Shown here: piece after piece, positions 8,174-11,100 of the stretch
Position numbering within the stretch: the stretch's first letter is position 1
Layout: the number at the start of each line of letters is the position of its first letter
Source: Candidatus Altimarinota bacterium
GTDB lineage: Bacteria; Patescibacteriota; Gracilibacteria; JBDHUY01
DNA length: 19,465 bases
Direction: 5' to 3'
Assembly (NCBI GenBank): GCA_039809385.1
Contig: JBDHUY010000024.1
Location: 1 to 19,465, forward strand
Program-made: the position numbers and the translations under genes
Notes under the pieces: generated by a model
What the model saw: only the letters and a program-made list of their open reading frames with translations
Told to the model about the DNA's origin: nothing
Database searches by the model: none

Positions 8174-11100
8174 TTATCGAAATTCCTCTATGAAGGATAT
8201 TCTATTTTCTTTTCTTTTCAATATCTCCTTATTCCTCCCTACCCACTCCTCCCACATCTCCCTCCCCGCCAGCCACGCGTCCCACTCCGTATCCGAAATA
8301 AATAACCGGTATCCCCGCCTGATATGCTCCTGCATGATGATGCCTTTTCTGGCAATATTGAAAGCCCCGTTCGCATCGCCAGAGCTCGGCCAAGCGGCTT
8401 TTTCTCCCGACCGTTCCCGATCCCAAAACACCCGCGAATCAAAATGATTCCCGTTCGCGTCGCGAATCGGTGAAAGGAGAAAATCACCGTCCCGTTCGTT
8501 CAAACCGGTATTGCGGATCTGCTGAATCAGGTCGATCGCAAACCGAAGCGACTCCCACGGAGTATGATTGTTGATTTTTTCCAGTCCCATACCTTCATCA
8601 ACGATTTGAGCAAGCAATGATCGACTCTTGTCGAATTTGGTGAAAAGCCCATCCAGCATATCTACGATATCATGGCGTTTTATATGCCATTCGTTCTTGT
8701 CTTTCCCTCGCTCCCCTCTAAAACGGTGAAGCCCACTACCGTCTTTTCCCGAAAATAGTTCCCATTTCTTGAGAAGTTGCGTCTGTTCTTTGTCCAGATA
8801 GGTGGCATAGCTAAAAACATAGTCTTTTCCGTCGAACGTAATATCCGAAAAAGAATCAATGATCTGCTTTTTAATACTCTCTTCCGACCCAGTCTTGAGA
8901 TAAATCGTTTTTCGCCAGCCCGTTACCGGATCGGTTTGAGATGTATAGTTCGCCCTGGTATAGAGCATGATCCCGACCTGTTTCCTATTTTCGATGTCTC
9001 CGTAATTATTCACCGGCGGCGTCAGTTGCAGGGCTTTTGTGACCGATCCTGTTTCGCCATTTTTAACATTTTTATCGACCAAAAAGTTCAGTTTTTTTGC
9101 CAAAGCCAATTCAAACTTCTGATAGACCGATTTTTCAATCTTTTGCCGTCCGCGTTTAAAACCGGTGTTGAGATCTTCCAGCACAATGAACGTCGGACGT
9201 GCTTCATCTGTGGCCAGACCGGCTATCGTTCGTACTACTTGGGAAATATAACCGGCTTTCAATTCCTTGATCGTTCCGATCGTTTGCCAATTTTTGCGGG
9301 CATAATTCCGATCTCCTGCCCGGGCTTCCAAAAGTTCGTTATAGTCTTTACACTCAACTTCTACTTCGTGTTCAATACCGTTTGCATCAAGAAAACGTTT
9401 TCTTGTTTTTATACTACGAGGCTTTTCATCTTTATCGGTAAACGGAAGGTTCAGTGTATCTTGTGTTACTATTTTCCCGTTTCGATCTGACAAGCAATAA
9501 TATGCCAGATGTTTTTCTCCCCGGTCGAGTCCCAGAAAATAGATTTCCGGTTGTTTGGAAAAAGACCCATTCACCAAATCATTTACTTTTTCATTTTTCA
9601 GACAAAAGTTCAACGTAATCGGAACATGAAAGACAAATTTCTCTTGTGAAAAACGGTAATTCTTAATTCTTTCCCGTCCCTGCTTGTCCATCACTTTTTC
9701 CATCTTTTCTACGGGAACTGCCTTGCGGTAAAAAAGTTCTGCTTCTCCGTTGAGCTTTGGACGATTATCAACATTTTCGAACAATGCTTTCCAGTAGATT
9801 GTGTGGAGATTCTCTCTGTGTCCCTCTTTTTTTCCTGCATTAGAATCCTGATTCCTAACTTCAAAAAGATAGATCTTCCCCTCGTTTGTCCATTGTTCCA
9901 ACCGCGTGTAGTTAATATCTACAAAATCCAGTTTGTATCCTTGCTTTTCAACCTCCGCATAAAATTGACCGATATCGGTATAGTCCTGTGTCGGTTTGAA
10001 TGAGAAATCAAAACAGGTCCAATCTTCATATCGCTTTAGCGCGGATTTATAGAAATTGATAAGTATATGAAGGTCAGAAATCGAAAAATTACTTTCCGTT
10101 TTTTTAAAACTTCCTCGATCATATACATCTAATACTTCTTGCGTTGCTCCATACTTGCTACGATCTGACTTGGGGAGGAGACACTTGGGAAGCATCTTGT
10201 TCGGACCGGGTAACAGCTTATATTCCATTTTCTTCCATGTCAGCTGTTGATTGGCTTGATACAACAGATTTTCTGTTTGTTTTTCAAAGATTTTGTTATA
10301 CCCTTTTTGCTTTGTCTCTTTTGCAATGATAGCTAGAAATTGTTTGCGTTCCGGACTTTCCAGTAATACACAATAGTTATCCGGCTCCTTATTTACATCC
10401 CATCCTCCGGCTAACGTGCTATTCTCAAAGTTCAGCTTCAGTTTGTTCTCCTTGGCCGTATCCTGAGGCTTTCGAGTAAGATAATTCCGCAGCGCGTCAT
10501 ACCATTTGAACCAGTCAATCTCCTCGATCTTTCCATCGAGTTCAATCTTACCATGCAAAATAGCATCAAGTGCCTGAAGTAAAGTTGCATCAATTGGTGT
10601 ACCTTTTACCTTATTCTCTTTGACCAAGAAATACTTGAGCATTTGAGTTACCGCCAGAGCATGATCAAAGCAGCTTTTTACTTTTTCTTTGTGCTCTTTG
10701 TATTTTTCCAGGTGCATGAGCTCTCCCAGTTCTTGCAGAAACAGCTCCGAGTGCTCCTGTATCTCAGAGAAAAGGAGTTGCAATAAAGCTTGAGAAACAG
10801 AAGGGGATTGGGTAATAACTTCCAATTTCTTTTCATCTTCCAGAATACTTTTTCTGAAAAAAATAGTTCTCCACTCGAGTGTTTGATCGAGTACCCTAAA
10901 AAATCCTTCCAGTTCCACTGCATCCGGAATCTTGACATCTTCGCCGCTGTCGCTCTCCGATTTTAAAAATACTTTCTCTTTTTTTAGCACATCCTTCAAC
11001 TCGTGCCAGCTGGCAAAGCATTTGTTTGAGATAGTATTGATCGCAGCTTTTGACCAGTATATCCCCAAATAGTTTTCCCGAGTACGCAAATAGTCTAATA

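Follow-up and report, generated by a model that had tools for sequence, protein, structure and literature searches.

A short, histidine-free WED-III loop is a lineage trait of a large Cas12a branch and not a sign of dependence on neighboring genes

Introduction

Can a Cas12a that lacks the histidine of its RNA-processing site still mature its own CRISPR RNA (crRNA), or must it rely on the genes beside it? The question is raised by a type V CRISPR locus in Candidatus Altimarinota bacterium (GenBank assembly GCA_039809385.1, contig JBDHUY010000024.1), where cas12a is followed by a second effector gene and an NYN-domain gene. We analyzed the entire contig of 19,465 bp, here called the window, which belongs to a genome of 1.87 Mb in 26 contigs. 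Array self-processing through a His/Lys/Lys site, on which multiplexed editing relies, is regarded as a hallmark of Cas12a, and this triad defines the known mechanism, not the Cas12a family. A preliminary description of the window had noted that the WED-III segment of its Cas12a is short and without the catalytic histidine and lysine. It had suggested that the enzyme might not mature its own crRNA or might use different chemistry, and that it could depend on the second effector or the NYN protein, which would account for the linkage of the genes. Judged from alignments, the missing histidine is instead a property of a large, uncharacterized Cas12a branch and not of this one locus.

Results

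The gene and the loop in question are placed as follows:

8174..12238, minus strand: cas12a, 1354 amino acids (aa), with PDB, Pfam and NCBIfam matches
9635..9760, minus strand: Cas12a residues 827-868, PKLNGEAELFYRKAVPVEKMEKVMDKQGRERIKNYRFSQEKF, including the anchors LNGEAELFYR and RFSQEKF, from in-frame translation
9656..9724, minus strand: short WED-III loop, K839-Y861, KAVPVEKMEKVMDKQGRERIKNY, His-free, from translation, alignments to Fn and canonical enzymes, and an AlphaFold2 model

By every sequence test, the first effector is a true Cas12a, not Cas12a2 or Cas12a3. The open reading frame (ORF) at 8174-12238 scored 668.7 bits against NCBIfam TIGR04330 (cut-off 300), and the Pfam families REC1 (Cas12a), Cpf1_PI-like, RuvC_1 and NUC were all above cut-off. 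The best PDB Cas12a matches had an E-value of 2e-156, and a fragment model of the protein matched Cas12a chains (Foldseek E 7e-29, TMq 0.63). Residues D905 (GLDRG), E1021 (LEDLN) and D1288 (SGDANG), which we take to be those of the catalytic RuvC motifs, are invariant in a 34-sequence alignment (A1). The array is likewise of type V-A, with 36-nt repeats, a UCUAC-GUAGAU hairpin and cas4-cas1-cas2 downstream.

Translation of 9635-9760 bears out exactly the earlier count of 18 residues, none of them histidine, between ELFYRKA and KNYRFS. Measured from the FYR strand to the RF motif, the loop has 23 residues and is His-free throughout (ELFYR-KAVPVEKMEKVMDKQGRERIKNY-RFS). Canonical Cas12a loops have 38-40 residues with the motif xHPANxPIxNKN, and those of As-like enzymes about 72-83. 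In phmmer alignments to FnCas12a chains, FYRK and IK..RF are separated by 15 residues fewer in the window protein, and 'hpak' and 'nknk' of Fn become insert columns relative to it. A profile-profile alignment of 37 short and 21 canonical loops also leaves the canonical THPAN without a counterpart; it places the canonical NKN lysine opposite K852 of the window protein and the IKDK lysine opposite K859.

Of the WED RNase triad (Fn H843, K852 and K869), the histidine is gone in all alignments, K859 matches Fn K869, and either K852 or K848 may match Fn K852, depending on the alignment. R862 is invariant in the Cas12a family alignment. As far as these alignments go, the loss of the histidine is solid, and the lysine equivalents (K852 or K848, and K859) are probably kept. 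In FnCas12a, H843 is described as the acid, K852 as the transition-state stabilizer and K869 as the base (PMC11127173). The window enzyme would then lack the general acid and keep the base and probably the second lysine, so the loss of lysine claimed earlier is not secure. The preliminary description was right about the histidine and, on an alignment-dependent point, probably wrong about the lysine. Its suggestion of different chemistry stands, because a WED-III site without the histidine cannot run the canonical His/Lys/Lys reaction.

The loop is predicted to be structured and to be under ordinary constraint. An AlphaFold2 model of residues 570-960, made with a 36-row alignment, has a mean predicted local distance difference test (pLDDT) score of 78. 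It folds the loop as a beta-hairpin, with strands at 848-850 and 856-858, the turn DKQGR, and pLDDT blocks of 87 and 91. Mean column conservation in 44 sequences is 0.654 for the loop and 0.646 protein-wide. An assembly artefact was rejected as the source of the short loop, as the length of 23 residues recurs in 46 of 107 anchored homologues.

We found no column enriched for a compensating histidine when 43 short-loop sequences were compared with 28 canonical ones across a 2313-column alignment. The only other His column that tracks loop type is that of Cas12a R1003 (9230-9232, in GYISQVVRTIAGL), which holds His in 28 of 28 canonical-His sequences; of the 43 short-loop Cas12a, 79% have Lys or Arg there and 19% have His.

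The distribution of the loop was followed in two sets of relatives. The homologue set consists of the best 120 of 5516 sequences with E<=1e-10, of which 107 could be anchored, or 115 with a looser anchor. The best 80 of 556 relatives among GTDB species representatives gave 78 loci, cited below by L number. Anchored homologue loops range from 19 to 38 residues with a mode of 23 (exactly 23 in 46 of 107), and the 23-residue loops follow the pattern K-A-L-P-x-D/E-K-L-E-K-x-K-D-K-x-G-K-E-I-I-K-N-F/Y. A canonical-length His loop occurs in none of the 115 loosely anchored homologues, the single regular-expression match being a 23-aa loop. Named close homologues come from Taylorbacteria, Magasanikbacteria, Gribaldobacteria, Peregrinibacteria, Gracilibacteria, Moraniibacteria and Paceibacterota.

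Among the 78 GTDB loci, 47 have the short loop, 28 a canonical His loop and one another type; the remaining two (L040 and L043) are cut by contig ends and stop before the loop, which leaves 76 readable. The canonical group includes As-like long forms, an 'IHPAN..YRRSDG' form and L038, which was counted as canonical by eye. The short His-less loop is thus a lineage trait of a large Cas12a branch, found mostly in metagenome-assembled genomes (MAGs) of the candidate phyla radiation. As it is lineage-wide and includes stand-alone relatives, it gives no sign of dependence on neighboring genes.

Other loop forms and coding peculiarities were seen in these sets. A separate short-loop clade (L046-L053, L057, L071 and relatives) ends its loop in ..(N/D)HK-RY, with a histidine two residues before the Arg. 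Histidine of this type occurs in 19 of 107 homologue loops, the window's own family having Asn there, and it could be a relocated catalytic His. A third loop type of 32 residues, 'KGHHYE.LKDKF.YPIIKD', is present in L060, L134 and L135 within the canonical clade, and two of these three loci are tandem loci. In L027, L032 and L036 (SR1/Gracilibacteria MAGs), the cas12a and second-effector genes are rich in in-frame TGA and need code 25; L027 has 43 and 46 such codons.

To place the neighbors, the rest of the type V locus is listed here. All of it lies on the minus strand, in the order cas12a, second effector, NYN gene, PIF1/RecD-like helicase gene, cas4, cas1, cas2 and array:

4767..8138, minus strand: second effector, Cas12a3-like, 1123 aa (PDB matches, family alignment, PADLOC Cas12a models)
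6093..6137, minus strand: WED loop of the Cas12a3-like protein, R668-F682, RKAQSQEQKKQNNRF, also without His (HMMER alignment to 21we)
3906..4646, minus strand: NYN-domain protein, 246 aa (Pfam PF01936 E 2e-12; weak PADLOC LabA-like NYN match)
2241..3788, minus strand: PIF1/RecD-like superfamily 1B helicase with a C-terminal WYL domain, 515 aa (Pfam PIF1 E 9.5e-33, WYL E 3e-4; PADLOC and NCBIfam RecD-like)
1517..2191, minus strand: cas4 (Pfam PF01930)
577..1539, minus strand: cas1 (Pfam PF01867 E 5e-54)
287..565, minus strand: cas2, assigned by its place after cas1 and by tblastn matches, with the same place in most related loci
22..121, minus strand: CRISPR array of two 36-nt repeats (86-121 and 22-57; GTTTAATACCCGTATTAGATTTCTACTTTTGTAGAT) with a 28-nt spacer between them; the second spacer is cut by the contig end at base 1

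The short loop does not follow these partners. In 33 of the 47 short-loop loci, cas4 lies within 400 bp of the cas12a stop (29 computed, plus L034, L041, L044 and L045 from coordinates), which leaves no room for a partner gene. The gap is 540-1122 bp in five others, four loci end before cas4, and the 1.6-kb gap of L033 contains nothing but a PRiA4_ORF3-like gene of 218 aa. Just 4 of the 47 (L026, L027, L032 and L072) have a second effector, of about 1100 aa. Several stand-alone short-loop loci have long arrays, of 22-60 repeats, in which the canonical hairpin is kept (60 in L041, 44 in L004, 36 in L045 and 26 in L010); L033 has 13.

Approached from the other side, a metagenome scan for relatives of the second effector gave 60 loci, 16 of them with an upstream Cas12a of readable loop: nine canonical, two of the 'GHHYE' type and five short. 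Taking both sets with the window, and counting L085 with L026 as the same contig, there are 22 distinct tandem loci, of which 11 are canonical, nine short and two other. Tandem loci are not enriched for short loops. One canonical-His Cas12a, in L064, stands beside a protein near-identical to the characterized Ba1Cas12a3 (1268 bits).

The NYN protein of the window had a tblastn match on just one other distinct contig, L026/L085, among 138 loci at E<=1e-5, and none in the other 136, a threshold at which divergent NYN genes could escape. Matches to the PIF1-like helicase were confined to L052 (168 bits) and, weakly, L101 and L106. At this threshold, both were too rare, and NYN and PIF1 were rejected as general partners. 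By these comparisons, the loop trait is unrelated to the presence of a Cas12a3-like effector, an NYN protein or a helicase. The short loop cannot well be the reason for the linkage, as the preliminary description had it, since it is mostly stand-alone, half of the tandem loci bear the histidine and NYN is rare. That description had also said that a short loop common in stand-alone orthologues with proven processing would count against it; the loop is indeed common in stand-alone orthologues. In L052 (4801-5242, a contig labelled Saccharibacteria), we observed a PIF1-like helicase gene directly after a stand-alone short-loop Cas12a, at the contig end.

The neighboring 1123-aa effector itself is Cas12a3-like. 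Its only PDB matches are Cas12a3 (21we, E 1.2e-61; 9hlx, E 4.3e-60), and its RuvC residues D741/E983/D1100 and zinc-ribbon cysteines C1053, C1056, C1077 and C1082 are invariant in an alignment of its family (A2); no Pfam NUC match was found in it. R681 aligns with BaCas12a3 R679 (HMMER to 21we) and is also invariant in A2. Identity to the solved Cas12a3 proteins is low (27-28% to the relatives in L064 and L028), and in place of the RNA-triggered cleavage of tRNA CCA tails that marks Cas12a3, the protein may have a Cas12a4-like or other activity.

The closest relative of this gene is in L026 (51% identity, 908 bits). That locus has an NYN gene and a large superfamily 1 helicase gene (AAA_11/AAA_12, zinc ribbon) nearby, upstream of cas12a and beside a BRO-N gene (features at 268-4857, 5802-6653 and 6988-7617). 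In this Cas12a3 sub-clade, NYN and helicase may form an accessory module, as Adt1 does elsewhere. Pfam scans of the ten largest ORFs of the window found no TPR-DUF3800 (Adt1) gene.

The repeats differ with loop type at position -19. The repeat hairpin of the window folds at -6.8 kcal/mol (z -3.4). Immediately before UUUCUAC, every one of the 22 canonical loci has the dinucleotide AA. The 31 short-loop loci divide into 14 with GA (the window among these), 13 with AA, two with UA and two with CA. These counts leave out loci without an array or outside the tree. Mapped on the Cas12a tree, position -19 is constant among the canonical taxa (22 taxa, tree length 10.4) and must have changed 15 times or more among the short-loop taxa (31 taxa, tree length 14.4). 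Neither group shows any variation at -18, and both vary at -20. Position -19 thus behaves like a piece of the mature handle in lineages with the His loop and like discarded flank in those without it. Possible reasons are a one-nucleotide shift of the cut, of the kind known from Cas12a2, or the loss of a base-specific contact, and the pattern amounts to a concrete prediction on how these enzymes process their crRNA.

An 8-bp hairpin covering -20 to -17 is also possible in the 5' half of the window repeat (86-121, minus strand; GUUUAAUA-CCCG-UAUUAGAU), and similar 5'-half palindromes occur in L014, L059 and L076, not generally. We considered it as a recognition element for another RNase and rejected it as not conserved. 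For the 5' part, the minimum free energy averages -0.69 kcal/mol over 31 short-loop repeats (<=-2 in four of 31) and -1.55 over 22 canonical ones.

In the Cas12a tree, canonical loops form two separate, well-supported clades, one Fn/Lb/Pc-like and one comprising the As-like and YRRSDG forms, the latter nested among short-loop lineages. This placement implies at least two gains or losses of the His loop. A tree with five Cas12a3-like outgroups gave the same picture with a basal trichotomy, and the short loop may be ancestral or derived. The trees omit seven of the 78 loci that had no single near-full-length high-scoring segment pair (L033, L034, L040, L041, L043, L044 and L045). For all of these but L040 and L043, the loop was read separately and is short.

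Elsewhere in the window, the gene immediately upstream of cas12a, which shares its strand, encodes a ComM/Mg-chelatase-like AAA+ protein (12430-13953, Pfam E 8e-90) and is probably a housekeeping gene. Near-identical DNA occurs in sequencing runs labelled activated sludge and wastewater metagenome, and at least two studies each match a share of at least 0.23 of the window's sampled words; one of these studies may be where the sequence came from. The matching runs, 15 DNA runs in 7 studies, included no RNA run.

Discussion

We think it somewhat probable that the lineage-wide short-loop Cas12a, whatever its neighbors, still matures its own crRNA without the histidine, and this is the most likely of the readings that we weighed. 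Maturation would take place at the same site, by metal-independent 2'-OH transesterification, with K859 as the equivalent of the Fn K869 base and K852 or K848 as the transition-state lysine. The invariant R862 would take the role of SuCas12a2 R785 and BaCas12a3 R679, and no histidine would act as general acid, in line with published work on Cas12a2 and Cas12a3. Because -19 is unconstrained in short-loop lineages, cleavage may be displaced by one nucleotide in the 3' direction, to the bond joining -19 and -18. Both effectors would probably load from one shared array, each being able to process it.

Published work on the sister enzymes offers a precedent. Mutants of SuCas12a2 K784/R785 are reported to lose processing, and the enzyme cuts 1 nt downstream of the Cas12a site (PMC9811890). 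H843, K852 and K869 are described as not retained in Cas12a2 or Cas12a3, with BaCas12a3 R679 corresponding to R785 (PMC13594972, NAR 2026). BaCas12a3 pre-crRNAs were matured to a 19-nt tag in E. coli, and its authors concluded that they are self-processed (PMC13594972). In the window, R862 of Cas12a aligns with R681 of the second effector by BLASTP, and through it with R679 of 21we. The window Cas12a would therefore combine the Arg of the His-free enzymes with lysines of the canonical site. Of a Cas12a2/Cas12a3-type site it has R862 and a Lys-rich loop; the preceding residue is Y861, not Lys.

Several points weigh against self-processing by the short-loop enzymes. The histidine of FnCas12a is described as the general acid, and H843A/K852A/K869A serves as a processing-dead control (PMC11127173, PMC9508855), so its loss could mean loss of activity. 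The K869 equivalent is Glu or Asp in 12 of 46 23-residue loops, which does not fit an essential catalytic base, and the residue before R862 is Tyr or Phe in the sub-family, not the Lys of K784-R785 in Cas12a2. Conservation of the loop is merely average, at the 51st percentile among 23-aa windows. The taxa behind the -19 pattern are related, and the pattern presupposes that each array has moved together with its cas12a; the trees are fast runs (IQ-TREE with LG+G4 for the 72-row one) supported only by SH-aLRT. The sampled loci are the nearest relatives of the query, a biased sample and not an unbiased census. Our literature search, mainly of freely readable papers, found no biochemical or RNA data on any short-loop or candidate-phyla-radiation Cas12a; such loops may already be visible in alignments that supplement the papers on Cas12a2 and Cas12a3.

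The most serious alternative is that the short-loop branch has lost its RNase and only binds the guide, with cutting left to host ribonucleases or, opportunistically in tandem loci, to a Cas12a3-like partner. The general acid is gone in every alignment, the acidic residues at the K869 position speak the same way, and a free -19 is what would be expected if Cas12a no longer read the cleavage site. Cas12a2 and Cas12a guides are moreover described as interchangeable (PMC9811890), so that a partner could supply guides. We nevertheless consider such a loss unlikely. The 33 short-loop loci without a partner effector have kept their arrays, many of them long, together with the canonical hairpin, these loci have no dedicated RNase gene in common (NYN being matched on one other contig), the loop is a conserved, confidently folded and Lys-rich hairpin, and the sister clades process without the histidine.

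A narrower version, in which the window Cas12a cannot mature its crRNA and specifically needs the second effector or the NYN protein encoded beside it, hence the linkage, seems very improbable to us. Both genes do lie between cas12a and cas4 in an operon-like block, and L026, which carries the closest Cas12a3 relative, also pairs a nearby NYN gene with a short-loop Cas12a. The short loop is mostly found without any partner, however, 11 of 22 tandem loci have a His-bearing Cas12a, the partner of the near-identical Ba1Cas12a3 included, and NYN is without a match in the other 136 loci (tblastn E<=1e-5). For loci where Cas12a shares an array with Cas12a2 or Cas12a3, complementary DNA and RNA targeting has already been published as the explanation (PMC9811890, PMC13594972, bioRxiv 2026.01.16.699850). 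Hardly credible, finally, is the idea that the histidine was displaced by misalignment or is supplied by another segment of the protein. Loop alignments do differ in detail by method, and some His is present in 31 of the 107 homologue loops, in 19 cases two residues before the RF motif; the loop of the window holds none, the 2313-column alignment shows no His column enriched in short-loop sequences, and the only nearby histidine, H871 (FVFH), is also present in canonical enzymes.

Self-processing without the histidine can be extended to a wider proposal, which we put forward tentatively and regard as rather less than probable. A large natural branch of Cas12a, represented by 47 of the 76 nearest readable loci, may process its own arrays by a His-free Lys/Arg mechanism like that of Cas12a2 and Cas12a3, cutting one nucleotide further 3' and leaving -19 free, with the His loop gained or lost at least twice and co-varying with the histidine at the R1003 position. 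If most Cas12a of the candidate-phyla-radiation type are without the histidine, then either His-free chemistry is widespread in Cas12a proper or many systems rely on other RNases. Either outcome alters the mining of orthologs and the design of guides, for example in handle length and the -19 nucleotide, and has a bearing on anti-CRISPRs such as AcrVA4. The result also disposes of an attractive but mistaken explanation for the cas12a-cas12a3-NYN linkage. As for a selective reason, AcrVA4 is reported to dock on the H759 surface with the crRNA 5'-OH, and indels there change susceptibility (PMC6711708); anti-CRISPR docking is a possible, speculative cause of the loop remodelling.

Comparison with Known Systems

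The window Cas12a shares with FnCas12a, LbCas12a and AsCas12a its family, the position of WED-III between the FYR and RF...FH strands and the UCUAC-N4-GUAGAU hairpin, as well as K859 (K869 in Fn), F863 (F873) and probably the K852 equivalent. It differs in its loop of 23 residues, from which the xHPAN and S.F.YD stretches are missing. Its repeat has G at -19, a position that varies in its lineage, whereas the 22 of 22 His-bearing loci have A.

The likeness to SuCas12a2 and BaCas12a3 lies in a basic, His-free loop at the same WED position, the conserved Arg of (K/N)R(F/Y) and the type of crRNA repeat. Unlike them, the window protein has the PI, Nuc and bridge-helix architecture and a Tyr, not a Lys, before the Arg.

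A stand-alone counterpart is the Cas12a of L033, from Candidatus Peregrinibacteria bacterium GW2011_GWA2_33_10, which is presumably the 'PeCpf1' of the first Cpf1 survey. Its WED-III loop is likewise short and free of His (26 aa, KAISKDKLGIVKGKKTKNGTEIIKNY), its repeat hairpin has the UUUU loop of the window, and its locus, with 13 repeats, stands alone; our literature search found no report on crRNA processing by this enzyme. It differs in being a 1477-aa protein with extra insertions, and its locus in having no second effector and the PRiA4_ORF3-like gene between cas12a and cas4.

The locus as a whole resembles the tandem Cas12a and Cas12a2/Cas12a3 loci as they are described in Dmytrenko 2023, Nature 2026, NAR 2026 and Goltsman 2020 ('type V-L'), with cas12a, a second RuvC/zinc-ribbon effector, cas4-cas1-cas2 and an array. 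Unlike the loci described there, the window carries NYN and PIF1-WYL helicase genes between the second effector and cas4.

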